The translations under genes were made by a program, and so were the position numbers. From NCBI GenBank assembly GCA_050952625.1, contig JBMNLH010000001.1, positions 81,056 through 145,055 of the forward strand: a stretch of 64,000 bases of DNA. The letters run 5' to 3'. The DNA is from Bacillota bacterium (GTDB lineage Bacteria > Bacillota > Ch66 > Ch109). This document shows positions 208 through 47,229 of this stretch, one piece after another (position 1 is the first letter of the stretch; each line of letters opens with the position of its first letter). Below the pieces are notes generated by a model. The model had not been told where the DNA came from. It ran no database searches and was given only the letters and a program-made list of their open reading frames with translations.

Positions 208-218
208 ACTGAATTAAC

Positions 219-952: not shown

Positions 953-953
953 C

Positions 954-6919: not shown

Positions 6920-6922
6920 GAA

Positions 6923-7381: not shown

Positions 7382-7482
7382 ACTATTCCCTCCTAATCAT
7401 AATTTTATTAACAATTTAAATTAAATGTATTAATCAAAAAGCCGTAACAATTCGATTTGCTACGACTTTTTTACCTATTTAT

Positions 7483-17388: not shown

Positions 17389-17527
17389 AATATCCTCCTT
17401 ATCCCTTGTCAGTACAAAGCCTAACCTATTTTAGTATAAGTTTAGCTGTAATTCAATGGGTTCGAAAATTAGCAAAACGAAAAGATTTTTGGTAAAATGC
17501 AAGAAGACTAAGTGGAATAAGGGTGGA

Positions 17528-18268
17528 ATGGGACAGGTGTTAGTTGATTACCATATTCATGGGATCGGCCATCGGACCAATAAACATACAGCTCCGGAAC
17601 TAGCTAAGTATATTGAGCAGGGGATAGCCCAAAACTTGACCGAAATTGGTTTTGCCGATCATGATGAATATCTGCTCGAACTAGATTTTTCAAGTTTTCT
17701 TTACCTGCAAAAGCGTTATTCGCAAATCAGGCTTCGCCTTGGCTTGGAAGTTGATTATCGACCGGGACAGGAAATACTGTTGAACCAGCGGCTAGCACCC
17801 TATCAATTCGACTACCTGATCGGGTCGATCCATTTTATCGGTGATTGGCCTTTCGATCATCCAGCTTATACCGCCGGGTATGCTGCCTGGGACATTGATG
17901 AATTGTACAAGACATATTTTTCATTAGTCACCCAGATGGTGAGATCCGGGCAGTTTGATATTGTGGGACACCTGGATCTGATCAAAGTTTTTGGCTACCG
18001 ACCACGACGTTCGGTCCTCGACTTGGCCGGTTCGACCCTGTCAGCTATCCAAGAAAGCGGAATGACGGTAGAAATTAATACGGCTGGTTGGTACAAGCCG
18101 GTGGGTGAGGTCTACCCGACCCGGGAACTCCTGGAGGAATGCTTCCGTTTAGGAATTCCAATTACTTTGAGCTCGGACGCGCATGCGGCCCAAGATGTCG
18201 GACGAGATATTGCGTGGGGCCCGCGAAATGGCCTGGGCCGTCGGCTACCGGCAGGTCGCGGTATTTGA
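17528..18268 (+). CDS. PHP-family histidinol-phosphatase (HisJ/HisK-like)
   Basis: VDYHIHGIGH metal-binding N-terminus with downstream His/Asp motifs (GHLDLIK, SSDAHAAQDVG). The start is taken at the internal Met after an AAGGGTGG RBS; the ORF is open from 17456. Confidence 0.6.
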   Translation: MGQVLVDYHIHGIGHRTNKHTAPELAKYIEQGIAQNLTEIGFADHDEYLLELDFSSFLYLQKRYSQIRLRLGLEVDYRPGQEILLNQRLAPYQFDYLIGSIHFIGDWPFDHPAYTAGYAAWDIDELYKTYFSLVTQMVRSGQFDIVGHLDLIKVFGYRPRRSVLDLAGSTLSAIQESGMTVEINTAGWYKPVGEVYPTRELLEECFRLGIPITLSSDAHAAQDVGRDIAWGPRNGLGRRLPAGRGI

Positions 18269-18553
18269 AAAGCGACAGAGGAGTCTGCTGCCTTTGTGAG
18301 TAGACTCTCATATCACTAAGCAGCCACCAGAACAGGCAAAATTAATCGCGCCGTGTTTTAACGCGGATCAGCGATTGATGGTCTGCATCAGCGAACAGCG
18401 GCGGAGGAGGATCTGCCGGCATCACTGGAGCCTGAAGGGCGAGCTTGATGCTGGCTCTAAGCGATAGGTCCGATCACAACCTGGTCTGCTGACCGAGTGA
18501 TAACACAAGAATTTCGAATACATAAAAATTACTATGAAAGGAGTAGACTGATT

Positions 18554-23446: not shown

Positions 23447-23525
23447 AAAAGTGAACTATTCAGCTTCGCTGAACACCGAGGCTTCAGATGGAGACTTTAC
23501 TTCACCTGAAGCTGTAACCAAAGCA
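23447..23525 (+). repeat. Dispersed intergenic repeat family, copy A (palindromic core gttcagcttcgctgaac)
   Basis: agtgaactattcagcttcgctgaacaccgaggcttcagatggagactttacttcacctgaagct has close copies at 33571 (+), 25416 (-) and 28676 (-). Confidence 0.6.
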
Positions 23526-23684
23526 ACCCACTTACAGAAGCGGGAGTCTTGTGATTCCGATGAATTATATAATTATTCGGCATGAATCGTTGAAACAGGA
23601 ATATCTTTGAGGTATTCTTTCATAAGGAAAGGAACGAGGAAAGGAACGGTCGATAATGCGTAATGGAAAGGAGACCGTGAGAAA

Positions 23685-25415: not shown

Positions 25416-25530
25416 GTGGGCGTTAAGTGGGGATACCTTGTTTAGACTTCAGGTAAAGTAGTGTTTCTAGGAGTAGTGTTTCTATCTGAAGCCTTGATGT
25501 TCAGCGAAGCTGAGCGAGATCACTCCAAGC
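25416..25530 (-). repeat. Dispersed intergenic repeat family, copy B (reverse orientation)
   Basis: accttgtttagacttcaggt...tctgaagccttgatgttcagcgaagctga is the reverse complement of the copy A/D core, with a ~30-nt internal insertion. Confidence 0.55.
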
Positions 25531-27423: not shown

Positions 27424-27691
27424 ACTTGAATTAGATTTAAATTGGCATTAAGCGATAATTATCGGATAAAATGTTTATGTTTGGTTTATTATTCTCACTG
27501 CGGGCCGAAAGCCCGCTTTTCATTGTTTAACCTCGTGCGGCAAGAAGTCTCCAGCTTGACAAACGGGTTAGTTTGGTATTACCATCTATTTTGTTGCTTT
27601 ATGAAGAATACTCGGTTAGAATATGCTCATAAACATTATTGCTATTATTTAGGCTCTTAATAAATTGAATAATGGGGGATTATAATCAGGT

Positions 27692-28642
27692 ATGAAACTG
27701 CCAGAATTGCAGATTGGCAATCTGATAGCCCGGCTCCCAATTATCCAGGGAGGGATGGCTGTTCGCATCTCTACTTCTCGCTTGGCGGCAGCCGTGGCTA
27801 ATGAAGGTGGCATAGGGATTATCGCTATAACCGGGATGAGTGTTGAGGAACTAAAGGCTGAGATTCGGAAAGCGCGAGAATTGACCAAGGGAATTATCGG
27901 GATAAACTGCCTTTTCGCCGTGCGTGATTTTGCTACCTTAGTAAAAGCAGCGATTCAGGAAGGAATAGATTTGGTCGTCTCCGGAGCCGGATTCTCCCGA
28001 GACATGTTTCAGTGGGGGAAGGAATCAAACACACCCATTGTCCCGATTGTTTCTTCAGCGCGACTAGCCAAAATCGCCGAGAAGTTAGGCGCAGCCGCGG
28101 TCGTAGTTGAAGGTAAAGAGGCCGGGGGACACCTGGGAACTACTGAACCAATGAAAAAAATCCTGCCCGAGGTCAGGGCCGCGGTCAGCATTCCGGTTAT
28201 TGCGGCCGGTGGAATTATTGATGGAAGGGATATTGTTGAGGCCTTCAAACTGGGAGCCAATGGGGTTCAAATGGGCACCCGCTTTGCGGCCAGTGAAGAA
28301 TCTGGAGCTTCACGTGAGTTCAAGGAGCTTTATTTGCGCGCTGCCTTAGAAGATGTTGTTTTAGTCAAAAGCCCGGTCGGTCTCCCTGGGAGAGCCTTGA
28401 AAAACCGGTTCTGGGAAAGAATTAATCAGGGTGAAGATCTAAGTCCGGAAACTTGTCGCGCCTGCTTAAAACACTGTTCTGGTGATTATTGTATTATGGA
28501 AGCTTTAGAGAAAGCCCAACAGGGAGACATGGAGAACGGCCTCGTCTTTTCCGGGGAGCTAGTTCAAAGAATCAAAGAGATATTGCCAGTCAAGAAAATA
28601 TTTCAAAACTTGCTGCAGGAGATTGAGACTTCTCCGGGATAA
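27692..28642 (+). CDS. Nitronate monooxygenase / FabK-like enoyl-ACP reductase (NPD family, FMN TIM barrel)
   Basis: IQGGMAVRISTSRLAAAVANEGGIGII, GINCLFAV, AGGIIDGRD and GANGVQMGTRF. Confidence 0.75.
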   Translation: MKLPELQIGNLIARLPIIQGGMAVRISTSRLAAAVANEGGIGIIAITGMSVEELKAEIRKARELTKGIIGINCLFAVRDFATLVKAAIQEGIDLVVSGAGFSRDMFQWGKESNTPIVPIVSSARLAKIAEKLGAAAVVVEGKEAGGHLGTTEPMKKILPEVRAAVSIPVIAAGGIIDGRDIVEAFKLGANGVQMGTRFAASEESGASREFKELYLRAALEDVVLVKSPVGLPGRALKNRFWERINQGEDLSPETCRACLKHCSGDYCIMEALEKAQQGDMENGLVFSGELVQRIKEILPVKKIFQNLLQEIETSPG

Positions 28643-28675: not shown

Positions 28676-28760
28676 AGCAGGGTTACCTTGTTTAAATTTC
28701 AGGGTGAGGCAGAGTCTCGTCCGAAGCCTCGCTGCTCAGCGAAGCTGAACGAGTTCACTA
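28676..28760 (-). repeat. Dispersed intergenic repeat family, copy C (reverse orientation)
   Basis: ggttaccttgtttaaatttcagggtgaggcagagtctcgtccgaagcctcgctgctcagcgaagctgaacgagttcac. Confidence 0.55.
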
Positions 28761-32427: not shown

Positions 32428-33529
32428 TTACAGAACCCTGGTCGTTGCCTGCCGGCTGTACCACCGGCCCAGCCTTTGCAATGCTTCCAGCTGCTCCCGT
32501 TGGCCGGCTTTGGTCCGTTTAAGGGCTTTTTGCAAAATGCGGGCAGAGTGTTCCATGTCCTCACGGTTTACTGGGTACGGGTGGCCGTCTTTCCCGCCGT
32601 GGGCAAAGGAGTAGCGCGCCGGGTCCCGGTAGCTGGGCTGAATCCCATAGGTCAGCTCTGCAACTAAGGCTAAAGCCCGCAGGGTACCGGCCCCGATCCC
32701 GGCAATGCCTAACAGGGCTTCAAAACTGCGGGGTCGTTGGTCGTGAGCAATGGACAAGGCCTTGTTTAAATAGGTCGAAGAGGGAATGGAGTGCCGGGCG
32801 GGCAGCGTCAGACTGGGAACTGTTTTCTTGAACAACTCCAATTCCCGGATCACACTGGCCGGGGGATAGGACACCAAATCAGTCGCGATCTGCCGGATAT
32901 CTTTGTTTTCTCCGGCGACCAGGTTTAAGGTCCGGGCAGTCGCATCACAGCAGATAGCTGAGTGCGGCTCGCACACAAAATCCTCCACCCCTCGGCTGAG
33001 CCAGTGGTAACGCCGGGCCTGCCGGTTATCCTCATTCATCCCTTGTTGAATTACGGTCCAATCGCCGCCCGGAGTAAAGACAAAAAAGTGATGATAGATT
33101 TGGTAGCCGTCCTGGACCGCTGAGCTGTCTACCTTAGCTGCCATGCGGCTGGCATACTGAAAATCCGCCACCTGGTTAGCGAAGCTAAACCGGTCACCTC
33201 AGCCGGGCAATCTCGTTTGGCGTGTTACGAGATACTCGGCCTTTGCCGCCGGCCAGGAAGATCCCCAGGTCAGCCTGCGCCTCTTTCAAACCTTCCTTAA
33301 GGGCCCCGCACACTGTCGTCGTTACTCCTGACGAATGCCAGTCAAAACCCAGCACACAGCCCAGGCTTTGAAACCAGTAAGGATCGGCTAGCCGTTTCAG
33401 AACCTCAAACGGACCGTACTCTTCTACGATAACCTCAATAATAGCTGCTCCCAAAGTCTTCATTTTAGTGAATAGCCAAGCCGGACATTTTCCGCCATGC
33501 AGCGGCAGGTTGGCAATCCCGGTTCGCAT
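32428..33529 (-). pseudogene. DUF763 family protein split by a frameshift between 33172 and 33200
   Basis: The N-terminal part (33194..33529; GIANLPLHGGKCPAWLF...WFQSLGCVLGFDWHSSGVTTTV) and the C-terminal part (32428..33171) are collinear but in different frames across a 22-nt gap. The family assignment is from memory. Confidence 0.5.
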
Positions 33530-33570: not shown

Positions 33571-33660
33571 AGTGAACACGTTCAGCTTCGCTGAACATCA
33601 AGGCTTCAAATGGAGACTCTACTCCACCTGAAGTTTAAACAAGGTAACTCCCACTTACTC
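33571..33660 (+). repeat. Dispersed intergenic repeat family, copy D
   Basis: agtgaacacgttcagcttcgctgaacatcaaggcttcaaatggagactctactccacctgaagtttaaacaaggtaact. Confidence 0.6.
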
Positions 33661-33807: not shown

Positions 33808-35280
33808 GTGAGAACAAAGACAAAACGGTCTTCAAGGCGAGGTATCCTATGGCGAGTCAGGATGGAGGTACAGGAAAGAAGATACCGAATCTGGCGGTGG
33901 ATTTTTCAGCAGCCAGACCACAGTACATCATATAAATGTTTAGCTGAACATTTTAAAGTCTCCGAGAAAACGGCGAAACTAGATTGTCTTGAACTGGTTA
34001 AAGAAGGCTATTTAAAACGTCATTGGGGCGGGGTAACCTTGACAGAAAAGGGACTTAAGGCCCTGTCCCAGGCAGGGTCGCTGGGACTTGATAGCACTAT
34101 AAAACGAAAACATCTACGCCAGTTAGTGATCTTACGGGTTTTAGCCAGGAGACGAGCTAGCCGAAAGAAAAGTGAACGCACCCTAACCCTAAAAGACATT
34201 TCGCGGTTAGCTGGGTGGGACATAGATTGCCCTGAAGAAAAAGCTTATCCCAGTTTAGATAGTTTGAGTAATGATCTGGCCGAGTTAACCTCAATTGGTC
34301 TGGTTGAACGAACCGAACAGGGCTGGCAGTTGGGCAGCAGTTTAATGCCGCCGCTTTATTTGAACGATGACCAAATGCTTCAGCTGCACCATTACTTAAA
34401 TACTTTGCCGGCGTTTCTGCCGCTGGATGCGGTCCAGATGACCAGAATTAAGGATAAATTGCAAACAATCTTGCTGACAAAAGAAAATATGCTCCCAATT
34501 GATCAACTTAAACTGGCGACTAGGGAAGTGGTCCATGGTTATTCTTCACCACCACCGGCTGATGCTAACATTGTCCGATTGGTCGAGGAAGCTGTCGCCA
34601 AAGGGTTGGTCCTGGAACTGCTCTATCAAGGCAGAAAGATCAAGATTAACCCAATCGGTTTAGTCTATCATTGGCGGCGGGGGTTCTGGTATATCATCTC
34701 CACCCCCAAAAAGCGGCAGCGAACCAACTTACAGATACTACGCCTGGATCGGGTGACTACCGCCTATAAAACTGAACAACAATTTACTCGTTTGCCGGCG
34801 CATAAAAGCAGGATATCGAACTTCCTGGCGGAATACTGGGGCGTTAGCAATGATCGAAGGTTCGAGGTGGAGATTCGTTTTTTTAATACCAAATGGAATG
34901 TTAACGCAGTCGAAAATATGTTGGGTGAAATTGCCCAACGGCAGTACTGGGCCAAAACCTGCCGGACCGTACCGCAGCCCGATGGCTCGGTTGTCTTAAA
35001 GGATACCATTACTGGGCTGTCTGAGTTTACAGCCTGGTTAAGAACCTACGGCGATGCAATCGAGATAATCTCCCCGGCTTGGCTGCGGGAAACACAAAAA
35101 GAAACCGCCCAAAAAATGCTAGCTGTCTATAAGAAGAAGACCGGCCAAATAAATAATCAGGCGGAAAAGCTATTTGACCAAGACATGATCAATAAAGCTG
35201 ATAGGCCTGAGCCAAGAGATACGACTGAGCAGAGGGGAGCCGAACAGAGAGACCGGAGCCGAGCAGAGAGATGGAGGTGA
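33808..35280 (+). CDS. WYL-domain transcriptional regulator (HTH-WYL-WCX), first of a tandem pair
   Basis: N-terminal DeoR-like HTH (YKCLAEHFKVSEKTAKLDCLELVKEGYL), a WYL core (GLVYHWRRGFWYIIS...LQILRLDRVTTA), and a C-terminal WCX-like extension. The true start may be the ATG at 33862. Confidence 0.7.
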   Translation: MRTKTKRSSRRGILWRVRMEVQERRYRIWRWIFQQPDHSTSYKCLAEHFKVSEKTAKLDCLELVKEGYLKRHWGGVTLTEKGLKALSQAGSLGLDSTIKRKHLRQLVILRVLARRRASRKKSERTLTLKDISRLAGWDIDCPEEKAYPSLDSLSNDLAELTSIGLVERTEQGWQLGSSLMPPLYLNDDQMLQLHHYLNTLPAFLPLDAVQMTRIKDKLQTILLTKENMLPIDQLKLATREVVHGYSSPPPADANIVRLVEEAVAKGLVLELLYQGRKIKINPIGLVYHWRRGFWYIISTPKKRQRTNLQILRLDRVTTAYKTEQQFTRLPAHKSRISNFLAEYWGVSNDRRFEVEIRFFNTKWNVNAVENMLGEIAQRQYWAKTCRTVPQPDGSVVLKDTITGLSEFTAWLRTYGDAIEIISPAWLRETQKETAQKMLAVYKKKTGQINNQAEKLFDQDMINKADRPEPRDTTEQRGAEQRDRSRAERWR

Positions 35281-35307
35281 GCCGAACGGCACCGAGCAGG
35301 AACGGAG

Positions 35308-36456
35308 TTGGCGAGACAGACAGATAAGGCACTAACCAGGTTGATTAGTTTGATCAAGATTCTCGAAAAACATCCAAAAGGCTTATCCGCTAATCAATTG
35401 GCCGACTTAACCGGATACCCGGCAGCGGTGATCCTGGATGACCTAAACTGGATCGTGCTGCAATCGGAATTTGCCGCGCACTACACTCTGTACGTTGATG
35501 ATTTCCCGGAAGAAGAATTAGACATAGAGACAGGAAGCGAAGCTTTACCTGAAGCCTTACATATTGAAACAGACAGTATCAAGGCAATCAATAACAGTGT
35601 AAAACATAGTGAGCTAATACAAGCTGAGACAGATAATAGCGACGAAGCAGATTATTCAGTGACTGACCCGGATCTTAAGTGGCTGCTTGTGCAAAGGCAG
35701 ACCTATACCCCCGGTTTAAATCTGTCTCTTGAGGAAGCGGTCCCTCTGTTATGGGCTTTAATGGAACACCCTCCAGGCCAAGAGCTGGCCTTATTCCAAA
35801 AAGAACTCAGGCGGCGAATTTTACCAGATCATATGGCTGAGCCAGCGGAAAACTGGATTCAGTTTATGGGAACCAAAGCGGGGATGGAAACACCCGACTG
35901 CCGTTACCTTGACCAATTGCGGGCGGCAATCTACCGGGAGCAGCTAATAGAGGTTAGATATTATGCTAAACAGTACCGGCAAACCAAACGGGCCCGCCTG
36001 CAACCGCTGGGGCTGGTGCTCTATAACGTAACCGGCACCTGGTACCTGGTCGCCCGAGAATACCCCGGGAAAGATATGACGGCCCGGGAAATAATCTTGC
36101 ATCTGGGGAGGCTTGAATCACTTCGGGTATTAGATCAAACGGCTAGCTACCCGGCTGATTTTTCGCTAACCGATTTTCTTAGAACTAGATGGGGAATGGA
36201 TATGTCAGATCCAGTCAAGGTCAAGGCCAGAATCTATCCGCAGGCCAATGTTCTGGAGAAGATCAACCGGGAAATGATAAAGCGCGGCCTGCCGGCCCCT
36301 GCGGAACAGGCTGACGGAACCTATCTATGGGAAGGCGAAGTGCGGGGAATTAATAATTTTACCCGGTGGATTCTTGGCTTTGGCTCAGCCGTTGAAATCT
36401 TAGCCCCGGCCAAGGTCCGGCGCGAAGTTATTTCGATAATCCGCAATATATGTTAA
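35308..36456 (+). CDS. WYL-domain transcriptional regulator (HTH-WYL-WCX), second of the pair
   Basis: HTH (GLSANQLADLTGYPAAVILDDLNWI), a WYL core (LQPLGLVLYNVTGTWYLVAREYPGKDMTAREIILHLGRLESLRVLD), and a WCX C-terminus (TRWILGFGSAVEILAPAKVRREV). Confidence 0.7.
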   Translation: MARQTDKALTRLISLIKILEKHPKGLSANQLADLTGYPAAVILDDLNWIVLQSEFAAHYTLYVDDFPEEELDIETGSEALPEALHIETDSIKAINNSVKHSELIQAETDNSDEADYSVTDPDLKWLLVQRQTYTPGLNLSLEEAVPLLWALMEHPPGQELALFQKELRRRILPDHMAEPAENWIQFMGTKAGMETPDCRYLDQLRAAIYREQLIEVRYYAKQYRQTKRARLQPLGLVLYNVTGTWYLVAREYPGKDMTAREIILHLGRLESLRVLDQTASYPADFSLTDFLRTRWGMDMSDPVKVKARIYPQANVLEKINREMIKRGLPAPAEQADGTYLWEGEVRGINNFTRWILGFGSAVEILAPAKVRREVISIIRNIC

Positions 36457-36645
36457 GTCAACCCCTACTTAATTGAAGTGGGGGTATTTAGTTTGAAAGG
36501 CAAACATCGCTTTGTCCTCCCCTTCACCGCCTCACGTCTCAAATCTGACATCTCACTCCTTACTCCTCACTTATCACTTCTTACACCTTATACATCACCC
36601 CTTGCCTCGCTCCTCGCACCTCATCCCTCACCCCGGTCGAATTTA

Positions 36646-36710
36646 GGAAACTTTTTTTCGGCTGAGTGAGTTTATAATCAGGTTTAAACTGCAAGCCTGA
36701 TTATATTAGG
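36646..36710 (+). promoter_or_regulatory. Conserved promoter-like element (…tttataat) overlapping a 9-bp perfect inverted repeat, a candidate operator
   Basis: ggaaactttttttcggctgagtgagtttataat has a second copy at 46280-46312. It is followed by ataatcagg-N13-cctgattat. Confidence 0.4.
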
Positions 36711-36739
36711 CTAGAGATTTTAGCGAGGTGAGGTTTTAA

Positions 36740-36922
36740 TTGGTGCGTAAAACTTGTCCTTATTGCGGCAAAGACTCTTTTAGTGCCTGCAGTACTGGCG
36801 AGTGGATCTGCCCGCATTGCTTTCGGGATATATCTAAGGTAGAACCCAAACCAATCAATTACCCGATCCTGCAGGTAGTTCAGAACAATCATTGCGACAA
36901 GGACCGCGAAGTAGTTGATTAA
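36740..36922 (+). CDS. Small CxxC…CxxC zinc-ribbon protein immediately upstream of cas10
   Basis: 60 aa, a GTG start after a GAGGTGAGG RBS, with CPYCGKD...CPHCF. Confidence 0.4.
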   Translation: MVRKTCPYCGKDSFSACSTGEWICPHCFRDISKVEPKPINYPILQVVQNNHCDKDREVVD

Positions 36923-37047
36923 AGCAGCGTAATTTGAAAAACAGAATTAACCATTAGTTAAAATAATTCGTTGATAGTTGGAAGGAAAATGGATGATCGT
37001 GTCGAAATTTCCATATAAATGCAGAACGGAGACGTTCAAATCCTAGT

Positions 37048-39462
37048 ATGTTAACCGTTAACCGTCAGGAGGTGAGAAAAATAGATTGGTTGTCTGACAA
37101 TAATGAAACTAATTTTAAAAACCTATTATACGGGGCCCTTTTTCATGATATCGGCAAGTTTTATCAGCGCACCCGTGATAAACAGGCGGAGAAGGAGATT
37201 TTCCAGGCTTATCAATGGTATGTAGAGAGCCTGGGTCGGGAATACCTCTCCCACGAACAATGGAGTGCCTACTTCATCCGCACTGTTTTAAAAATGGAAG
37301 CAGCCGCAACCCTGGCTTTAAAGCACCACCACCCGGAAACTGACCTGGAATACCTGATCGCAATTGCCGACAAGTTGTCCGCAATGGAACGGGATGAAGA
37401 AGGCCCGGCCAGTAACGGTAAAGCCAATGTGGCAGCGGAACCCCTGTGTTCTGTTTTATCTTCTATCCGGCACATTAGAGATGATAGCGAGCCGGCCATT
37501 AGTTTTAAACGCTTGAAATTCGAACCCTTGGTTGATCCTTACCCGGTTTCCGATAAAAATGCAGCCCTTAGCCCGGGGGACTATCAGGCCTGGTGGGAGT
37601 GTTTCGCAACGGAAACCAAGGAGACTGTGAAGCAGCCGGTCGGTGCTGGCAAACAGTTTCACCGTCTATATCAGTTGCTTTACCAGTACACCCAGACAGT
37701 GCCTTCAGCCGCCTATTATTCCAAACCAACTATCTCCTTGTTTGACCATTCCCGGACCACTGCAGCGATAGCCACGGCCCTTTACCGGCAGGGGCTTAGC
37801 CAGAATGACCTGGAAAGGTTGCACCGTCTTTTGGTGTATGGAGGCAAGAAGCGGGGAGCGGAAGAGCCGGTCCTGCTCTTGGTTGGCGGCGATATTTCGG
37901 GCATTCAGGACTTTGTGTTTGATGTGTCAGCCAAAGGAGCAGCCAAAGGCCTGCGGGGCCGGTCCTATTATCTGGCCACTCTTGGCGAGGCGATTGCTCA
38001 GTTTATCTTGACTCACGAGGGTCTTACCCCCTGTAACATTTTATATTCCGGGGGCGGCCATTTCTATTTGATTCTGCCGGTTCGGGCCATGTCACGCTTA
38101 GCCGATTACCAAAAACAGATCGACCAGATCCTGTTTGCGGCCCATCAAGGGAAGTTGTCGGTCATTCTAACCGGGATTCCCTTGACCCAGACTGATTTTT
38201 ACCCGGAGAATTTCGGCGAAAAGTGGCAGCAGATCGGTCTAGCAGCCCAAAAAGCCAAGCAGCAGAAATTCCTCGAATTGATCCGGCAAAACCCGGAACA
38301 AGTGCTGGGTCCGAGTTATGAAGGCCAGCAGGTTTGCGTCATTTGCGGCAGTTCAATGCCAGTGGGAGAAGAAAAATGCTCTTTCTGCGAAAGCTTTGAA
38401 CAGCTAGGCGATAACCTGGCGCGGGAGCGGACGTATCTTTTGGAGTACTACTTTAAGCCCCGTCCGGTAGACCAGATGTCCACAGTGGAAGATGTCTGGG
38501 CTGGTCTGGGATATCGGCTGGAGTTTTCCAACAAACCAGATGCCCAGGCCATTGTTTCGGTAATCAATCAACCAGCCTTGGCCGATAAAGCAGTTGATCG
38601 TGTGGTTTGGCTGGCGAATACTGCTCCGCATAACCCGGATGGCAGTCTGCTGACTTTTGAGGAGATCGCGGCGCAAAGTACCGGGGATCACATGTGGGGA
38701 GTCCTGCGCGGTGATGTGGATAATCTGGGCAGGGTTTTTCGGGAAGGCCTGGGCCAGGATCGCTCAATTTCCAAGATTGCCGCCCTCAGTCGAGAGATGT
38801 CCTTTTTCTTTAGCTTTATTTTTAATCAGGTCTGTCTGCGGTACCGGCAGTCGGTTTATGTCATTTATGCCGGGGGAGACGATTTCTTTTTGGTAGGTGC
38901 CTGGAGTGATTTGCCAACGATCGCGGCGGAAATCAACCGGGAATTTCACCGATACAGCTCCGGGAACCCTAACCTCACCCTATCTTGTGCGATCAGTATC
39001 GCATCGGGGATGACCTATCCTTTGTTTAAGGTGGCCCATACCGCCGGGGAACAACTGGACGAACAGGCCAAAACCACCCGAATGGTTAAAGGGGTTCTCC
39101 ATCATAAAGATAGTGTATGTTTTCTAGGCCAGCCCTTTACCTGGGGAGAATTGGAGGAAGTCAGACAAGTCAAGAACTTGATCAAAAAAGCAATCCAAAA
39201 TGAAGGGGTGGCTAAATCGCTCATCTTCTTGATTAATACAGCTTACGCTGAGCAGCGGCAATACCAGCAGGGCAGATACCCGATCAATCGAATTTGGCGG
39301 CTGGTCTACGCCCTGACCAGACTGGCTGCGCGACATGGGCAAGCCGCTAACACCCTGAAAGAATTGGAAAGCCGGCTGTTAACCAGCCAGACAATGCTGT
39401 ATGCCAACAGCCTTTACGCGGCCCGCTGGGCCGAAAAAGAATTGAGAACAAGGGGGGACTAA
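37048..39462 (+). CDS. cas10: Type III-A Cas10/Csm1 (HD nuclease plus cyclase/Palm domains)
   Basis: An N-terminal HD motif (LLYGALFHDIGKF) and a GGDD cyclase motif (VIYAGGDDFFLVGAW), at 804 aa, leading the csm2-5 operon. Confidence 0.9.
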   Translation: MLTVNRQEVRKIDWLSDNNETNFKNLLYGALFHDIGKFYQRTRDKQAEKEIFQAYQWYVESLGREYLSHEQWSAYFIRTVLKMEAAATLALKHHHPETDLEYLIAIADKLSAMERDEEGPASNGKANVAAEPLCSVLSSIRHIRDDSEPAISFKRLKFEPLVDPYPVSDKNAALSPGDYQAWWECFATETKETVKQPVGAGKQFHRLYQLLYQYTQTVPSAAYYSKPTISLFDHSRTTAAIATALYRQGLSQNDLERLHRLLVYGGKKRGAEEPVLLLVGGDISGIQDFVFDVSAKGAAKGLRGRSYYLATLGEAIAQFILTHEGLTPCNILYSGGGHFYLILPVRAMSRLADYQKQIDQILFAAHQGKLSVILTGIPLTQTDFYPENFGEKWQQIGLAAQKAKQQKFLELIRQNPEQVLGPSYEGQQVCVICGSSMPVGEEKCSFCESFEQLGDNLARERTYLLEYYFKPRPVDQMSTVEDVWAGLGYRLEFSNKPDAQAIVSVINQPALADKAVDRVVWLANTAPHNPDGSLLTFEEIAAQSTGDHMWGVLRGDVDNLGRVFREGLGQDRSISKIAALSREMSFFFSFIFNQVCLRYRQSVYVIYAGGDDFFLVGAWSDLPTIAAEINREFHRYSSGNPNLTLSCAISIASGMTYPLFKVAHTAGEQLDEQAKTTRMVKGVLHHKDSVCFLGQPFTWGELEEVRQVKNLIKKAIQNEGVAKSLIFLINTAYAEQRQYQQGRYPINRIWRLVYALTRLAARHGQAANTLKELESRLLTSQTMLYANSLYAARWAEKELRTRGD

Positions 39463-39463
39463 G

Positions 39464-39925
39464 GTGGGCATGAATCGACCACCCATTCCGGGGGGACCCG
39501 GGGGCAGACCAAGAAATACAAGCGGAGGTCGAAGTAACCTTGACAATTCCGCGGTCCGGGATGCCCTGCAAAACGTCAGGCAACTGCTGGATAAAGACCA
39601 GGACCCGTACGGAGAGTTATTAATCCAAACAGCCGAGGCAATGGGCCGGCACCTAGCCAATAACCGGATGACCACGGCCCAGATCCGGAAACTCTTCTCC
39701 GAAGTGCGGAAACTTAATTTTAAAGACGACGGGCCTTACAAGACCAATATGATGCGGGCCAAACTGGCCTATACTGCCGGCCGTCACCGCGAAGTTGGTG
39801 ACCTCCAGCAGGTATTAGACAAAGCCTTAATCGAAGTGGGGACCAGCGAAGAAAAATTTAACCGTTTTGAAAACTTTTTTGAAGCCATTGTGGCCTACCA
39901 TAAGAAATACGGCGGTAAAGATTAA
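39464..39925 (+). CDS. csm2: Csm2 small subunit
   Basis: A ~150 aa helical protein between cas10 and csm3, with a Gly/Pro-rich N-terminus followed by a helical core. Confidence 0.75.
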   Translation: MGMNRPPIPGGPGGRPRNTSGGRSNLDNSAVRDALQNVRQLLDKDQDPYGELLIQTAEAMGRHLANNRMTTAQIRKLFSEVRKLNFKDDGPYKTNMMRAKLAYTAGRHREVGDLQQVLDKALIEVGTSEEKFNRFENFFEAIVAYHKKYGGKD

Positions 39926-39970
39926 GAACGAAGAATTAGGGGTTAAGAAGACAGGGAGGAGGCTTAAGCG

Positions 39971-40804
39971 GTGACTGAACTAATAATGGAAGGCAAATTA
40001 GTCATGACTGGCCTGATTAAGGCCTGCACCGGACTGCATATCGGCGGGTCCCCGACTGGTTTAGATATTGGCGGCGTGGATAAGTCTGTCATTAAGGACC
40101 CAGGAGGTAAGCCCTATATCCCCGGCAGTTCGCTCAAGGGGAAAATGCGCAGTCTGCTGGAAAAAAGTGAAGGACTGGTTACTTCGTCCAGCCTGGTAGT
40201 TACTAAAAAAGGCGGGATCCACGACACCATTCGGATGCACATGTGCAATTCGCCAACTTGTGCTGTTTGCAATATTTTCGGCCGGACCAACGGGCGAAAA
40301 AAATTAGCTGACGAATCAGATCTAAATATTGAGAACGGGACCCTGCCGCGTTTGATAGTGCGGGATGCGTATCTGGTTGAGGACAGTATCCCGCGGGAGA
40401 TGAAAGAACACTTGGATTTGGAATGGACCGAGGTCAAGTTTGAAAACTCAATTGACCGTATTACATCTGCCGCTAACCCCCGACAGACTGAACGGGTGCC
40501 GCGGGGAGCAGAGTTTAGTTTTCAAATGGTCTATACGGTTTATACTCCGGCAGACCGAGATGACTTCAGCAAGGTGACCAAGGCCTTACGGCTGTTGGAG
40601 GATGACTACCTGGGCGGGGCCGGCAGCCGGGGTTACGGACAAATCCTTTTTCATAACCTGAAGCTATATTGGAATTCAGTCAATGACTATGAAACCGGGA
40701 ATATTAATCTAGCGACCAAAGAGCCCTGGCTAGCGGCGGATACCCTCAGCCAGTTGATGGAACAAATGGTTGAGGCCGGGGGCGTGGCCGGGCTTAAAGA
40801 ATAG
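39971..40804 (+). CDS. csm3: Csm3 (Cas7 backbone RAMP)
   Basis: GLHIGGS...KPYIPGSSLKGKMRSLLE G-loop motif plus the RAMP C-terminus GSRGYGQI. Confidence 0.9.
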   Translation: MTELIMEGKLVMTGLIKACTGLHIGGSPTGLDIGGVDKSVIKDPGGKPYIPGSSLKGKMRSLLEKSEGLVTSSSLVVTKKGGIHDTIRMHMCNSPTCAVCNIFGRTNGRKKLADESDLNIENGTLPRLIVRDAYLVEDSIPREMKEHLDLEWTEVKFENSIDRITSAANPRQTERVPRGAEFSFQMVYTVYTPADRDDFSKVTKALRLLEDDYLGGAGSRGYGQILFHNLKLYWNSVNDYETGNINLATKEPWLAADTLSQLMEQMVEAGGVAGLKE

Positions 40805-40816
40805 CGGGGCGATAGC

Positions 40817-41809
40817 ATGAAAGCACACATCGTGAAAATGCATTTTACAGCGCCCCTGCACTTAGGCAGCAAGGAAGCAATGCTGGAGAACACCCTGCAG
40901 CATATCCCATCCGATGTTGTTTTTTCCGCGCTGTGCAACGTGTATCGCCACCTCTACGGCAAACAAGCTTTAGAGTCGCTGCTGGCGGAACAAGCACAGT
41001 CGGCCGGCTTCCTATTGTCATCAGCCTTTCCTTATTACCGGGATGCCTATTTTTTGCCCCGGCCTTTAAACTTTGACTTAACCCGCTATGGCTTTGAACC
41101 GAAAAAGGCCAAACGGGTGAAATATCTGGAATATAACCTGATGCACCGGGTGTTGGCGGGTAAGTTTCAAGCCGCGGATTTGGAGAATTATGTCGCTGAG
41201 GCGGTGCAGGGCCTGCTTTTGCCCCGGGAGTATCAGGGTCTGAAAATCTGCCGCGAGGTTGAAATACCGCGGGTCGCCCTGGACAGCCTGACTGCTGCGT
41301 CAAATATCTATTACTTTAACCAGGTGACCTTTACCCGGGAGGCCGGTCTTTACTGTCTGGTCCGGTGTGCGCCGGAATTATGGGGCCGGCTCAGGACCTG
41401 TTTTCGTGTCTTGGGCGATGAAGGAATCGGCGGGGACCGGACTTCCGGCAAGGGAGGATTTACCGTCGAATTTCCAGGCGAACTGGCTTTTCCGCAACTG
41501 GGTCAGCCGGCCAGCCATGTCTTATTGTCCCTGTATTATCCCAGTTCTGATGAGGCGGGAAGCCTGGAGGCTGAGTATTCGTTAATCAAACGTTCTGGTT
41601 ATGTCTACTCTTCAGAGGAAACCGGCCTGAGAAGGAAAAGCGTCACCATGCTGGCCGAAGGGGCAGTAGTCTACGCTGATTCTCCTCCAGTTGGGAAGCT
41701 CGTGGACCTGACACCGCCCGGGTTTGACAAGCACAAAGTCTGGCGCAATGGCCTGGCCTTCACGGTGGCGTCAGCCCTGGGGAAAGGAGGAGGGGAAGAT
41801 GCCGGGTAA
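40817..41809 (+). CDS. csm4: Csm4 (Cas5-group RAMP)
   Basis: 330 aa between csm3 and csm5, with a C-terminal Gly-rich region (GDEGIGGDRTSGKGGF). Confidence 0.8.
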   Translation: MKAHIVKMHFTAPLHLGSKEAMLENTLQHIPSDVVFSALCNVYRHLYGKQALESLLAEQAQSAGFLLSSAFPYYRDAYFLPRPLNFDLTRYGFEPKKAKRVKYLEYNLMHRVLAGKFQAADLENYVAEAVQGLLLPREYQGLKICREVEIPRVALDSLTAASNIYYFNQVTFTREAGLYCLVRCAPELWGRLRTCFRVLGDEGIGGDRTSGKGGFTVEFPGELAFPQLGQPASHVLLSLYYPSSDEAGSLEAEYSLIKRSGYVYSSEETGLRRKSVTMLAEGAVVYADSPPVGKLVDLTPPGFDKHKVWRNGLAFTVASALGKGGGEDAG

Positions 41810-42950
41810 ACTCAAGTATCGCCTGGAGGTCTTGACCCCGGTGCATATTGGCAGCGGGCAAAAACTGCTGCCGGCGGATTATATTCTTGATCCCGAGACG
41901 CAGGAGGTTATTCGGGTCGACCTAAATGCCCTGTTTAGTGACCGCTCTTTTCCGGTCGGACGTTTTATCGCGGCGATTAAAGAGCCTGGCTTTAGTCTGC
42001 AGCGGAAATTTTATCAGTCAGGGCGCATGTATCCCCTGTACCGGCTGGCAGCAGCCGATACGCTAAACGAGCTTAACCAGCACATTGGCCGCCCGGCCGG
42101 GGCCATTCTCGAACACATAAAGGAGGCCGGCCAGCCCTATCTCCCGGGGAGTTCGCTGAAAGGAGCCTTGCGTAGTCTGGTCGTTCGCTGCTTGATTGCG
42201 CAAAACCCTGATTCTTACGAAGAAAGGCTCAGACAAAACATGCAAGGAGACAGGAGAAGCCGAAAGGAGTTTTTCTCCACTTCCGCTGAAGAACGCGTAG
42301 TCGGCAACCCCAATTTTAGTCTATTTAAGTCCCTGCAGGTTAGCGACAGCTCAACGTTAAACCCACAGCAGCTTCAATTGGGCTGTACGCGGGTCCTTTC
42401 CTTAACCCGACGTGGGTTCCGCTGGAAGGACCTGGGTCAGAACACGAACGTGGATCGTCCAGAGATGGCAACGCCGATTTTTTTTGAAGCCATTCCGGCT
42501 GGGACCACCCTAACCGGCACCTTAAAGGTAGATGAGACCTTGCTCAAAGGAGAAATGGCGCAATTGCTCAGGTACCCGCCGGCCAGCAGAACCGCCCTGC
42601 TGGAACTAACGCGGATCTGCCGGGAAGGCAGCCGGGAACTGTTGCGCAATGAAGAGGAGTTTTTCACGAAAATTTCCTTTGCCCCGGGTGTTCAGGCGGT
42701 CAAAGGTATACTGTCGATTGAGCAGGACTGCAACGCTAATCAGATGATTATCCCCTTGGCCTGGGGGACTGGTTATCTGGCCAAAGCGATGGGCTGGAAG
42801 ATTGATCCCGATTTGTTTCGGGAGGTGCGAGACCGATTCAGACTGGGCCGGCCGGGGTTTGAATTTCCAAAATCTCGAAAGATTATTTTCACGCAGGGTA
42901 AACCGTCTGGTTTAATGGGCTGGGTTAAGATCACCCTGGGAGAGGAATAA
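41799..42950 (+). CDS. csm5: Csm5 (Cas7-group RAMP)
   Basis: MPGKLKYRLEVLTPVHIGSG...PYLPGSSLKGALRSLV. The ATG at 41799 is preceded by GGAAAGGAGGAGG; the ORF-track start at 41724 lies inside csm4. Confidence 0.85.
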   Translation: MPGKLKYRLEVLTPVHIGSGQKLLPADYILDPETQEVIRVDLNALFSDRSFPVGRFIAAIKEPGFSLQRKFYQSGRMYPLYRLAAADTLNELNQHIGRPAGAILEHIKEAGQPYLPGSSLKGALRSLVVRCLIAQNPDSYEERLRQNMQGDRRSRKEFFSTSAEERVVGNPNFSLFKSLQVSDSSTLNPQQLQLGCTRVLSLTRRGFRWKDLGQNTNVDRPEMATPIFFEAIPAGTTLTGTLKVDETLLKGEMAQLLRYPPASRTALLELTRICREGSRELLRNEEEFFTKISFAPGVQAVKGILSIEQDCNANQMIIPLAWGTGYLAKAMGWKIDPDLFREVRDRFRLGRPGFEFPKSRKIIFTQGKPSGLMGWVKITLGEE

Positions 42951-42953
42951 CTG

Positions 42954-43882
42954 ATGCTCAAGGTAATTAAAGTTAATATCGAACTCAAACCCGTCGAACC
43001 TATTGAACTGCCAGTTTATAAAGGTTCCACCTTTCGGGGGGATTGGGCCAGGTACTTAAAGAGATGGTCTGTATCCGGCGGGACCGGCAGTGCCGTCGGT
43101 GTTCCATAAGTAATAAATGCAGCTATACCTTCGTCTTTGAAACCGCAACTTATTATGCCGGGCAGCCTCGGGATTCCGGGGGTGTGCCGCAGCCGTTTGT
43201 CTTGGAACCACCTCTGGAGGAAGAAACCAGATACGAAGTTGGCCAAACAATCAATTTCAGTTTAGTTTTGATGGGGCGGGGGGTAGATTATCTGCCCTAC
43301 TTCCTGTCCGCCTTTGATTTTATGGGGGAGCGGGGAATCGGACGCCGGCGGGGTCGGTTTGAGTTGTTCCGCGTGACTGACAGCTATTCGGGAGAGGTAG
43401 TCTACGACCGGGAAAGCGGTGAGGTTAACTCGCTGTTGACCCCCCGAAACCTTTCAGACCTGCTTCTGAAAAGCGAGGCGTGCCAAAGCTGTTGCCTGAC
43501 TCTGCTCACCCCGCTTCGTTTAAAACAAGGGGGCAGCCTGACCGAACAATTCAACTTTGAATTACTCATTCGAGCTATTCTAAGGAGAATAACCTATCTC
43601 AACCAGTATTTCGGTGATCAAGAGATAGAACTGGATTATAAACAGCTTATCGATCAGGCCAAAGAGATCAAAACCAGGGCCAGAAATATAGCCTGGCGGG
43701 ACTGGGAAAGGTATTCAAGCCGGCAGGATACCCGGATGAAACTGGGCGGAATAGTTGGCGACATAGAGTTCGCCGGAGAAATTACCCCTTTTTGGCCTTT
43801 TCTGTTAATGGGGCAGGAAATCCACATTGGCAAGAATACTACCTTTGGCCTGGGAAAATATTTAGTGGAACGATCAGGCTGA
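42954..43882 (+). CDS. cas6: Cas6 (crRNA endoribonuclease) of the III-A module, with a frameshift in a G6 run at 43035-43040
   Basis: Frame 0 from the ATG at 42954 gives MLKVIKVNIELKPVEPIELPVYKGSTFRG, then hits a stop. The track ORF (43043..43882) continues ...GQVLKEMVCIRRDRQCRRC... and carries the Cas6 G-rich loop GEITPFWPFLLMGQEIHIGKNTTFGLGKY. Inserting one G yields GSTFRGGLGQVL. Confidence 0.8.
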
Positions 43883-44343
43883 GAGATTGAGAATGTTGAG
43901 TAGATGTTGGAAGGATAAGTAATATTTATGTCGAATTCTAATATTATCTATTTTATTTTACCAGTTTCATATTCGATAGGTTTTGCCTATCGTAATTGAT
44001 AGATAAGTAAGTGAGCCTTTTGGCCTGATTTTATAACGTTGCCCTGCACGAACGAATAGTAATCAAAATTGCAAATTCGACTCCATATAATATAAGCAAT
44101 TTATATTTATTGAAGTAATGCACTTATTATTATCGCTAACCTGTTTAAGGCTAAAAATCTCTGGGAGGTTAGCGATAATGAGTAATTCAAAGAAATATGC
44201 TGAAATAAAGAGCAAGGAGGCAATAATTTTATTTGGGATGAACTGGAAAAGAGGTGATTTTCAAGTCTTTGTAGCAGGTTTTTTTGCGGTTAGCGGAATG
44301 GCACCTCGCAGCCCAGTATTATCAAGGCCTCCGGACAGCCGCT
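43883..44343 (+). promoter_or_regulatory. CRISPR array 1 leader (AT-rich), with a conserved 12-bp stem hairpin at 44131-44177 and 58 bp next to the first repeat shared with the array 2 leader
   Basis: tatcgctaacct...aggttagcgata, and gcggttagcggaatggcacctcgcagcccagtattatcaaggcctccggacagccgct, both have homologs at 60825-60867 and 60978-61035. Confidence 0.6.
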
Positions 44344-46312: not shown

Positions 46313-46368
46313 TATTAGGGTGATCGGTTAACTTGTCATTGCAACTTCTATCAAGGAGGTTAAAAGAA

Positions 46369-47229
46369 ATGGGTTTTCTAAAGGATTTAGGCAGTCTCAC
46401 CGGCAGCATTGCAGGGGTGGTTTTGTCTACTCCAGTGACTTTGGCTGGTGGTTTTTTTGATAGTGATACCTTAAAGGAGGCGGCTCGCGGGATACACTAT
46501 GTTACCGCCAGTACTGGTTCCTTAATCGGTCAAACCGTCAGTGGCGGTCTGGATGTGGTGGAAGGAGTTTTAACTAGGAATGACAGGATAAGTCAGCAGG
46601 GTCTTGATGAGGTTGGTGATTCTTTTAAAACTGTTATCAATGGGGTAATTGGTGGTACCGCTAGTCTCTTGGATAATAGTGGTAAAGTAATTACTGGGGT
46701 ATTTGAGGGTGATACGGCCACCGCAATGCAAGGAGCTAAAAATCTTGCTAAATTTGGCATAATTACGGCCATCGGAATTGGGCTGGCTGATGCGATTGGG
46801 ATTGTTGATGTAAATGGGAATGAGACGGTAGCCCACGCTCAAGTACCTAGTAGTTTTAGTTATGATCAAGATGATGCTGTTTTGGATTATTCAGATATTG
46901 GTGAACCGCATGGGCTAGTACCGGACGTTCCGGTTGATGACATTCCTGGAGTTGATAATGGTATGGCTCATCCATCCGCTACGGAGGTATTAATTGATCT
47001 GGGTTGCCAGGATGGAACGGAGCATGTCGTGGATCCGCCCCGGGATCCGGGGATGGTCCAGGCATTTTTAACGGAGCATGGATATACTGAGACTCCTGAT
47101 GGTTACGAGGTCCATCACATTATTCCTCTGTCCGAAGGTGGAGCCGACCATCCGGCTAACATGGTATTAGTTTTGGAAGAAGAACATGATCAGATTACGG
47201 CGGCCCACCAGAGGTTTTATCAATGGTAA
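46369..47229 (+). CDS. Hypothetical protein with a Gly-zipper-rich N-terminal region and a C-terminal HNH-type nuclease motif
   Basis: The ATG at 46369 follows an AAGGAGG RBS. The C-terminus EVHHIIPLSEGGADHPANMVLVLEEEHDQITAAH fits the HNH HH-N-H pattern. The N-terminus has GxxxG-like runs (ITAIGIGLADAIGI). Confidence 0.5.
   Translation: MGFLKDLGSLTGSIAGVVLSTPVTLAGGFFDSDTLKEAARGIHYVTASTGSLIGQTVSGGLDVVEGVLTRNDRISQQGLDEVGDSFKTVINGVIGGTASLLDNSGKVITGVFEGDTATAMQGAKNLAKFGIITAIGIGLADAIGIVDVNGNETVAHAQVPSSFSYDQDDAVLDYSDIGEPHGLVPDVPVDDIPGVDNGMAHPSATEVLIDLGCQDGTEHVVDPPRDPGMVQAFLTEHGYTETPDGYEVHHIIPLSEGGADHPANMVLVLEEEHDQITAAHQRFYQW

Follow-up and report, generated by a model that had tools for sequence, protein, structure and literature searches.

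Layout of the locus

The DNA considered here is a 64-kb stretch of contig JBMNLH010000001.1, from a Bacillota (Syntrophomonadaceae) metagenome-assembled genome; the whole stretch is called the window, and positions are counted from its first base. Within the window two genes for WYL-domain regulators, WYL1 and WYL2, are followed in the same orientation by a type III-A CRISPR operon that begins with cas10. Between WYL2 and cas10 lie an inverted repeat and a small open reading frame (ORF) for a predicted zinc-ribbon protein, and it is this segment (36646-36922) that concerns us. Reading 36400-37200 from left to right, the stop codon of the gene for the 382-aa WYL2 (36456) is followed by a terminator-like hairpin, a C-rich tract, the block GGAAACTTTTTTTCGGCTGAGTGAG, a TATAAT hexamer that opens the palindrome, a Shine-Dalgarno (SD) sequence, the small ORF and cas10 (Table 1).

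An original prediction, made from the letters alone, described the palindrome, a CxxC...CxxC ORF with a strong ribosome-binding site (RBS), the two WYL genes and a complete csm operon, and all of these are present. It further proposed that the palindrome is a strong candidate WYL operator and that the ORF encodes an undescribed small Cas-associated protein. Our analysis retains the first proposal in a weaker form and argues against the second. The ORF had also been placed directly before cas10; it does precede cas10, with a gap of 125-150 nt between its stop codon and the cas10 start. The GTG at 37072 used here as the cas10 start is also called in two of the related contigs described next, L028 and L033.

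Three other contigs, L028, L033 and L034, encode a Cas10 that clusters with that of the window at 90% identity. L033 and L034 are 99.98% identical to each other, so that the three contigs represent two distinct sibling sequences.

The inverted repeat and the TATAAT hexamer

The inverted repeat consists of TATAATCAGG (36673-36682) and CCTGATTATA (36696-36705), separated by 13 nt. It was originally given as a perfect 9-bp repeat, and the perfect match is in fact one pair longer, 10 bp. The palindrome widens to 13-nt arms that are 92% complementary (one T:G) around a 7-nt loop. The 5' end of its left arm is TATAAT (36673-36678), the sole consensus TATAAT of the region, which is identical in the window, L028 and L033. 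If TATAAT serves as a -10 hexamer, the block GGAAACTTTTTTTCGGCTGAGTGAG (36646-36670) would span about -40 to -16 of the predicted promoter and the palindrome would cover about -12 to +20. The block is likewise identical in the three strains, and the sequence 5' of it diverges.

The expected frequency of such repeats was taken from a first-order Markov simulation in which overlapping matches were each counted. The window has four sites with a perfect inverted repeat of 10 bp or more around a loop of 3-20 nt, compared with a simulated mean of 1.27 matches. For this 280-nt intergenic region the expectation is about 0.006 such repeats, and the core ATCAGG-N(3-25)-CCTGAT occurs once in 64 kb, compared with 0.05 expected occurrences.

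Other roles and other sites were also considered. The palindrome was rejected as an intrinsic terminator, as the terminator scan made no call and the AU-rich stem is followed by AGAGATTTTAG, with no T-run. No Rfam covariance model matched 36400-37120 at E<=1. The sequence TGATTATAA before WYL1 (about 33721) was rejected as an operator, being a direct rather than an inverted match that lies amid promoter-like hexamers. A further exact copy of the half-site TATAATCAGG is found at 27681-27690, a single nucleotide ahead of the start codon (ATG) of a nitronate-monooxygenase-like gene (27692-28642); chance would give about 0.1 such copies, this one has no inverted partner, and it is probably a coincidence.

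The C-rich tract upstream of the conserved block (36500-36640) contains 63 C and 12 G in 141 nt and is the most extreme C+T, lowest-G stretch of the window. It is rich in CTCAC/CCTCA motifs, and these are complementary to the GAGGTGAG sequences at which ribosomes would bind before the small ORF and before cas10. Such a tract is always preceded by a hairpin, and is found also in L033 (about 7400-7610) and L028 (270-350 and 720-770); in these siblings the composition is kept, and the length and sequence vary. The tract resembles a Rho-loading (rut-like) site or a fast-evolving repeat. A + strand ORF that runs through it, 36478-36669, was set aside as being of low complexity, starting within the terminator and having no RBS. 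On the other side of the small ORF, in the gap before cas10, lies a 44-nt block, TTGATAGTTGGAAGGAAAATGGATGATCGTGTCGAAATTTCCAT (36971-37014), with GGAAAAT...ATTTCC symmetry. This block is conserved in every sibling although indels flank it, with 95% identity in L028 between insertions on its flanks; it contains no sigma-70 match, and is perhaps a cas10-proximal promoter or control site.

Conservation among sibling strains

In L028 the DNA of cas10 is 99.2% identical to that of the window, and in L033 and L034 the cas region is 95-98% identical. L033 and L034 are syntenic with the window through the AAA, VWA, PNPOx and DUF763 genes, WYL1, WYL2, the terminator, the C-rich tract, the palindrome, the small ORF and the csm genes. 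L028, in which positions 1-3891 correspond to window 36468-39920, is a mosaic: cas10 and csm2 are 99.2% identical to those of the window, and the palindrome-ORF segment (an aligned 317-nt block) is 92.4% identical. Between the small ORF and cas10, L028 further contains ~225 nt of inserted sequence with a strong hairpin, GATTCGGGCGGAG...CTCCGCCCGAATC, and a C-rich tract. These differences suggest that recombination took place recently, with a breakpoint near 37050.

In both L028 and L033 conservation begins abruptly at about 36643 (about -43) and is near-invariant to the middle of the ORF; the C-rich tract on the 5' side diverges. The 9-bp cores of the palindrome, ATAATCAGG and CCTGATTAT, are unchanged in the window, L028 and L033. 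The differences among the siblings are TT to CC or CT before the left arm, A to T in the spacer, a 2-nt deletion, and T to C or T to G after the right arm. The changes thus fall in the spacer and flanks, a pattern that, with three close sequences, is not above neutral expectation. A covariation count on these three sequences found no double-sided compensatory changes, and shuffles were uninformative.

The WYL regulator pair

WYL1 matches Pfam HTH_DeoR (3.9e-07) and WCX (3.8e-11), and its WYL part is matched by the Cas-associated WYL profile of PADLOC, PDLC01652 (6.8e-22), and by WYL proteins of the PDB (~3e-05). WYL2 matches Pfam WYL (3.7e-08) and WCX (5.6e-13), and PDLC01652 (2.4e-26); its helix-turn-helix (HTH) region, residues 8-40, matches HTH_IclR at 0.0013, which is under the cut-off. 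The two proteins are 28% identical across the WYL-WCX part. Judged by these profiles, the claim of two tandem WYL paralogs is sound: WYL1 and WYL2 are genuine tandem paralogous regulators of the Cas-associated kind, and are ordinary HTH-WYL-WCX members.

In L034, WYL1 and WYL2 form one in-frame ORF of 920 aa (4605-7367), joined by an expanded (AEQRDR)n tandem repeat (5990-6130). In the window the corresponding stretch, 35227-35332, belongs to two separate genes. Because the two are fused into one protein in L034, WYL1 and WYL2 probably act together as a hetero-oligomer, by the Rosetta-stone argument. In L033 a single gap breaks the fusion ORF into parts of 776 and 122 aa, by either a real frameshift or an assembly error. 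PafB and PafC are likewise paired WYL proteins that act together, and they are fused in some actinobacteria. The best PDB relatives of the window's WYL proteins include chain 8tp8, deposited as a 'DeoR-family transcriptional regulator', which we take to be DriD. DriD is a transcription activator (PMC9186387).

The hairpin after WYL2 (36461-36485) has a 10-pair stem, ACCCCTACTT/AAGTGGGGGT, followed by the T-rich tail ATTTAGTTTG (to 36495). It folds as RNA at -15.7 kcal/mol, and its 3' half is kept in L028 and L033.

The small zinc-ribbon gene

The small ORF, annotated by NCBI as a hypothetical protein, encodes MRKTCPYCGKDSFSACSTGEWICPHCFRDISKVEPKPINYPILQVVQNNHCDKDREVVD, with CPYC...CPHC, and its SD sequence, GAGGTGAGG, lies 6-9 nt upstream of the start. 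A word-indexed protein search with the product returned only the protein itself. An exhaustive phmmer search of 1.84 billion representative proteins gave 128 relatives at E<1e-3. Family members are nearly all 40-110 aa long, and the match is at the extreme N-terminus, a 35-aa zinc ribbon (KxCPxCxxxSYSAxxxGxWxCPxC) with the signature K-x-C-P-x-C-x(3)-S-[YF]-S-A-x(3,4)-G-x-W-x-C-P-[YH]-C-x(2)-D-[IL]. In the family alignments K3, C5, C8, W21, C23 and C26 are invariant, S12, S14, P24 and D29 are nearly so, and the tail is unalignable. A strong RBS precedes the small ORF and nearly all of its relatives. AlphaFold2 (AF2), run on a 67-sequence alignment, modelled residues 1-40 as a ribbon, with a predicted local distance difference test (pLDDT) score of 80-93, and the tail as disordered. 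A Foldseek search of the PDB with this model found only rubredoxin, LysW and L37ae-like ribbons, none at E<0.001 (all E>0.2). No Pfam, NCBIfam, PHROG or PADLOC model matched the protein at threshold, and only generic ribbon similarity (L37ae, YnfU, Lar, TFIIB-type) was seen. An antisense ORF (36701-36892), favoured by one gene caller in L033, was rejected: its length is 87, 63 and 43 aa among the strains, and it belongs to no family. From the family alignments and the model, the small ORF is a real gene for a predicted 59-aa C4 zinc-ribbon protein with a fast-evolving disordered tail.

Within the ribbon, L028 differs from the window only by I22V, I30L and one synonymous change. The tail changes are I42V or I42M, V45I, Q46W, N48K, C51R and a terminal frameshift, of which I42M and Q46W come from inspection of the L033 sequence by eye and the remaining ORF changes from L028. 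As judged from these comparisons, the ribbon is maintained and the tail drifts, with a local signal of purifying selection absent from the tail. Two relatives, P0122 (255 aa) and P0138 (209 aa), have five and two tandem copies of the ribbon, respectively, after an N-terminal hydrophobic segment. These tandem copies suggest that the ribbon is a reusable binding module.

Distribution of the zinc-ribbon family

To what extent is the family linked to cas genes? Twenty Cas, WYL and accessory proteins of the window were compared by tblastn with 20 other family loci, and no match was found within about 5 kb; the 20 loci include L030, judged by eye to be a non-member on account of its different CxxC spacing. 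All-against-all clustering of the family loci revealed no conserved neighbour gene. Chromosomal members lie beside NAD synthase and MazG genes (L007), an ABC transporter (L011) or an mraZ cell-division cluster (L012). In L009, L031 and L032 the member stands directly after divergent cI/Cro-like HTH_3 pairs, and the L031 and L032 relatives have the tails most like that of the window protein. Fourteen family members are on IMG/VR viral contigs; on the five that are annotated, nearby genes encode primase-helicase, exonuclease, HNH endonuclease, MazG-like, ADP-ribosylglycohydrolase and transcription-regulator proteins.

The converse search, starting from cas10 as the original prediction had recommended, found orthologs of the small ORF in the siblings only. 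The more distant Cas10 relatives (63%, 56%, 51% and 40% identity; L002-L006) have neither such an ORF nor WYL genes upstream, and a hidden Markov model of the family, run on six-frame translations of five contigs of these four relatives, found no member. When a genome collection was scanned with Cas10, the only matches were an identical fragment and a relative of 40% identity whose upstream region is full of repeats. Metagenome scans returned L028 again and L030 only for the small ORF, and nothing for WYL2. A zinc-ribbon gene beside cas10 is thus kept only in the three near-identical sibling contigs. Among the accessory genes of type III systems, a published census includes HTH-WYL (cluster 36), and the words 'zinc' and 'ribbon' each occur 0 times in its text (PMC6546367).

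In sum, these contexts define an unnamed family of anaerobic Bacillota and their (pro)phages that is linked, by its neighbourhoods, to mobile elements. Because the family is common in phages and at unrelated chromosomal sites, the small gene is best described as a lineage-specific passenger at this cas10 and not as a component of the type III-A system. The proposal of an undescribed Cas-associated protein is accordingly not upheld by the gene's distribution, with Cas or WYL genes near 0 of the 20 other family loci.

A tentative promoter and operator upstream of the small ORF

The explanation that we favour, at a probability of roughly 0.4, is that the segment holds a promoter and an operator before the small ORF, with the ORF as a passenger gene. 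The ~280 nt between the WYL2 terminator and cas10 would then be the head of a small transcription unit in which 36646-36742 serves as promoter and 5' untranslated region, with a good -10 hexamer and a non-canonical -35 region. This placement is proposed because conservation sets in ~43 nt upstream of the predicted start, because a terminator follows WYL2, and because L028 lacks an adjacent WYL unit. The terminator after WYL2 means that transcription has to begin anew downstream, and in L028, where WYL2 is not the immediate upstream neighbour, the ORF cannot be expressed by read-through from the WYL unit. The palindrome would most likely be the operator of a dimeric HTH repressor that blocks RNA polymerase; about -12 to +20 is the classic position for a repressor operator. 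WYL1/WYL2 would be the best candidate for the protein that binds there, probably as a hetero-oligomer, and on sensing a ligand through their WYL domains the regulators would release the DNA. That transcription starts after TATAAT, that a protein sits on the palindrome and that this protein is WYL1/WYL2 are all steps that we infer, and the palindrome is in this sense a plausible candidate WYL operator. The small ORF may be co-transcribed with the csm genes: there is no terminator between them in the window, but L028 has its hairpin-bearing insertion there.

A number of observations weigh against this explanation. Of the promoter-like element originally described, the TATAAT stands as a -10 hexamer only. 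No -35 hexamer is found 16-18 nt from it, the hexamer 17 nt upstream being ACTTTT, and a sigma-70 scan of 36400-37300 called no promoter on the + strand. One inverted repeat of at least 10 bp somewhere per 64 kb is roughly the chance level. No second operator-like copy was found before WYL1, the array leader, the csx1 genes or the second type III operon, and the lack of a related site at those promoters means that there is no sign of autoregulation or of a regulon. The arms are conserved no better than the surrounding 100 nt; invariance of the 18 arm positions at 5-8% divergence has a chance probability of about 0.24, as estimated from the 92.4% identity. In L028 there is no WYL2 immediately upstream, and a ~90-nt dispersed repeat directly precedes the remnant of the terminator. 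The ORF itself differs in L028 by one synonymous and six non-synonymous substitutions plus the terminal frameshift. Finally, the stem has conserved U·G positions, its outer helix is kept as U·G changes to C-G, and the + strand folds 3 kcal/mol more strongly than the - strand, all of which hint at an RNA hairpin. The palindrome does lie in a conserved promoter-like block, and to that extent the operator proposal stands; given these observations, 'strong' is too firm a word for it.

Alternative explanations

The hint of an RNA hairpin can be taken at face value, with the palindrome acting in the 5' leader of the small-ORF (possibly csm) transcript rather than as a DNA operator. Transcription would then start upstream of 36669, and a stem of ~17 bp with a 7-nt loop would serve as a 5'-end stabiliser, as a site for a double-strand-specific RNase, or in protein binding. 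The + strand folds at -14.7 kcal/mol (z -3.8) in the window and at -20.3 (z -5.6) in L028, and the - strand fold is weaker in both because three of the pairs are U·G. The outer helix (GUU, GCC or GCU facing an invariant AGGC) survives among the siblings through the U·G to C-G change, and the remaining differences are confined to the loop and bulge. Further, 36500-36760 as a whole folds with z -3.7, and in that fold the C-rich motifs pair with the RBS. Any palindrome can fold in this way, however, and the three sequences offer no double-sided compensatory change; there is also no Rfam match and, after the stem, no terminator-like T-run. The hairpin further requires that transcription either start within the C-rich tract, which is poorly conserved, or pass through the WYL2 terminator, and L028 has no adjacent WYL gene from which to read through. 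We therefore regard a leader hairpin as rather unlikely. Somewhat less probable is that the palindrome is without function, a chance inverted repeat in AT-rich intergenic DNA that is shared by kinship, with the ORF and csm genes using other signals. The chance level of about one such repeat per 64 kb, arms that are not significantly better conserved than neighbouring bases, the lack of another copy in the window, and the lack of any palindrome found 5' of other members of the zinc-ribbon family are what one would expect in that case. Such a chance origin fits poorly with the 0.006 repeats expected in this 280-nt region, with the position of the palindrome inside a sharply bounded conserved block beside a diverging tract, and with a 2-nt indel and flank changes that spare the 9-bp cores and lengthen the stem in L028.

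The good -10 without a -35 would also be accounted for by a positively controlled promoter, at which WYL1/WYL2, in the manner of PafBC or DriD, activate transcription from 36646-36670 in place of a -35 hexamer. The regulators would sense a nucleic-acid ligand, and the palindrome would be incidental or bound by another protein. The invariant 25-nt block lies exactly at the -35/activator position, the tandem paralogues form one protein in L034, which recalls the PafB-PafC fusions of some actinobacteria, and 8tp8, presumably the activator DriD, is among the best PDB relatives. The block has no obvious repeat symmetry, though, and L028 keeps it without a WYL2 immediately upstream; the sequence gives no distinction between activation and repression, and a perfect palindrome over the -10 and the start site is left unexplained. 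We consider activation unlikely, and a little more so than a palindrome without function. For the zinc-ribbon protein, the alternative to a passenger is that it works as an accessory or modulator in this type III-A system, for example as a Csm regulator or a domesticated phage anti-defence protein. Its RBS and ribbon are intact in all three sibling cas10 contigs, including L028 with no adjacent WYL2; the gene has the orientation of cas10, with no terminator between the two in the window; and relatives occupy the early regions of phages, next to HTH regulators, where anti-defence genes are typically found. Yet there is no cas link in the 20 other loci, no such gene near the Cas10 relatives at 40-63% identity, no PADLOC model match and no mention of a zinc or ribbon family in the type III accessory census (PMC6546367). 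The tail evolves freely and is frameshifted in L028, where the ~225-nt insertion with its strong hairpin parts the ORF from cas10, and an anti-defence protein would here be chromosomal, beside its would-be target. An accessory role is thus very unlikely. Least probable of all, at long odds, is a combined scheme in which phage and mobile-element early-gene ribbons modulate host defence or nucleic-acid transactions, and one copy was taken up as the leading gene of the csm operon, where an operator controlled by WYL governs it, to become a built-in modulator (brake, sensor or adaptor) of type III-A immunity.

Relation to known systems

Previous work showed that BrxR, a WYL regulator, is a repressor whose binding sites are 11-bp inverted repeats (5-bp spacer) located downstream of a predicted -10, and that Sll7009 represses a CRISPR locus (PMC9122601). 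The locus described here resembles those of BrxR/CapW and Sll7009 (Synechocystis CRISPR I-D) in having HTH-WYL-WCX regulators upstream of, and co-directional with, a defence operon, and it resembles the BrxR locus in having an inverted repeat at or after the -10 box. It differs from BrxR/CapW in that there are two tandem paralogues rather than one homodimeric protein, in that a terminator stands between the regulators and the target, and in that the operator is predicted from sequence. The arms are here 13 nt apart, with half-site centres separated by 23 bp as opposed to 16 bp for BrxR. Further, BrxR has an operator before its own gene, and none is found here upstream of the WYL genes.

The likeness to PafBC/DriD lies in the paired paralogous HTH-WYL-WCX proteins, sometimes fused as in L034, in a target promoter with a -10 and no -35, and in the closest solved structures, which are WYL proteins and the 8tp8 chain. 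In sequence, the likeness does not go beyond the WYL-WCX part and is modest there, at E about 1e-8 to 1e-5; the target here is a CRISPR operon, and the conspicuous cis element, a palindrome that covers the -10 and the start site, is of a kind typical of repression.

The zinc-ribbon protein shares with the small zinc ribbons Lar, YnfU, ECs_2282 CxxC and L37ae two CxxC knuckles in ~35 residues and a rubredoxin/zinc-ribbon fold (AF2), and Lar, like some relatives of the window protein, is prophage-encoded. All the scores fall far short of the curated cut-offs: L37ae gives 16.7 bits against a cut-off of 95.8, and ECs_2282 gives 12.9 against 37. The Lar model, TIGR03655, matches 13 of 37 members of the family (best E 5.5e-4) and phrog_6422 matches 5 of 37, which is generic ribbon similarity; TIGR03655 is not among the five families listed at E<=1 for the window protein. 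The family has a signature of its own (S-Y-S-A, G-x-W-x-C-P) and no Pfam or NCBIfam model. As with type III accessory genes such as Csx1/Csm6, HTH-WYL and CorA, the small gene is found at a cas locus, between HTH-WYL genes and cas10, and it differs from them in not recurring beside cas genes.

A palindromic operator before a defence operon is an expected arrangement, and stand-alone zinc ribbons are common. The current understanding of CRISPR systems is unchanged, and the main value of the analysis is that it removes the label of 'new Cas-associated protein' from the small ORF. If the palindrome is the operator of WYL1/WYL2, the locus would be a clear natural case in which a pair of WYL regulators, fused in some strains, gates a type III-A operon, and the siblings with split, fused and absent WYL regulators would be ready-made controls. 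The zinc-ribbon family, with more than 100 members and a placement after cI/Cro-like switches, is a reasonable target for phage-biology screens.

Other features of the window

The coordinates of the features are collected in Table 1. Further downstream, the window contains two Csx1/Csm6 genes, a second type III module and a second CRISPR array.

Table 1. Coordinates of the regulators, candidate control elements, CRISPR genes and repeats in the window
Feature	Position	Strand	Basis
WYL1, 490-aa HTH(DeoR-like)-WYL-WCX regulator	33808-35280	+	Pfam, PADLOC, PDB
WYL2, 382-aa HTH-WYL-WCX regulator, WYL1 paralogue	35308-36456	+	Pfam, PADLOC
Intrinsic-terminator-like hairpin and T-rich tail, end of WYL unit	36461-36495	+	Terminator scan, RNA fold
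C-rich, G-poor tract with loose 21-nt repeats (repeat family D1)	36500-36640	+	Composition, repeat finding
Invariant 25-nt block GGAAACTTTTTTTCGGCTGAGTGAG	36646-36670	+	Sibling comparison
TATAAT, candidate -10 hexamer	36673-36678	+	Sequence reading
Perfect 10-bp inverted repeat, 13-nt spacer; candidate operator or RNA hairpin (36669-36712)	36673-36705		Sequence, inverted-repeat finding
Shine-Dalgarno sequence GAGGTGAGG of small ORF	36725-36733	+	Sequence reading; invariant in siblings
Small zinc-ribbon gene, 59 aa (GTG 36743) or 60 aa (TTG 36740)	36740/36743-36922	+	NCBI hypothetical protein; relatives
Conserved 44-nt block in ORF-cas10 gap; possible cas10-proximal control element	36971-37014	+	Sibling conservation
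cas10/csm1, 796 aa from GTG 37072; reading frame open from 37048	37072-39462	+	Pfam HD, Csm1_B, Cas10 palm2
csm2, csm3, csm4, csm5, cas6	39464-43882	+	Pfam Csm2_III-A, RAMPs, Csm4_C, RAMPs, CRISPR_Cas6
Type III-A CRISPR array, 36-nt repeat GTGAGAAT[G/C]ATTGACCCG[C/A]TCAGAGGGGATTGCGAC	44345 (about)-46109	+	Repeat search
Dispersed repeat copies, ~90 nt	23449-23535; 25424-25524 (-); 28682-28759 (-); 33575-33650

The repeats of the type III-A array are of two kinds, with the variant GAATGATTGACCCGCTCAG in the first units (44345 to about 44840) and GAATCATTGACCCGATCAG thereafter; a tandem-repeat finder gave the second part only. The second array (61036 to about 62446) has a third variant, ...GATTAG.... 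In the leader between cas6 and the first array there is a perfect 14-bp inverted repeat, ATTATCGCTAACCT-N23-AGGTTAGCGATAAT (44129-44142 and 44166-44179). Its sequence is unrelated to that of the palindrome upstream of cas10, and its right arm overlaps the GGGAGG-ATG start of a possible short ORF.

The DNA alignment of L033 with the window ends at the array. Just past its array the window has an ORF with an HNH domain (46333-47229), and L033 has, downstream of the array (16022-18391), a reverse-transcriptase gene of at least 964 aa (RVT_1 + AEP-TOTE + Mu_Gam-Sipho_Gp157-TOTE). Upstream of the WYL genes, the DUF763 gene on the - strand is split in the window into 32428-33171 and 33194-33529 (247 and 111 aa). 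It is a single intact 366-aa gene in L033 and L034, and the split in the window is a frameshift, a pseudogene or an assembly error.

The dispersed intergenic repeat of ~90 nt, with the core AGTGAACTCGTTCAGCTTCGCTGAACA...GGCTTCAGATGGA...CCTGAAGTTTAAACAAGGTAACCC, is present in four copies in the window, and L028 has one copy (80-160) where the window has the WYL genes. A gene for bacterial RNase P RNA of class A lies on the - strand at 7481-7839 (318 bits).

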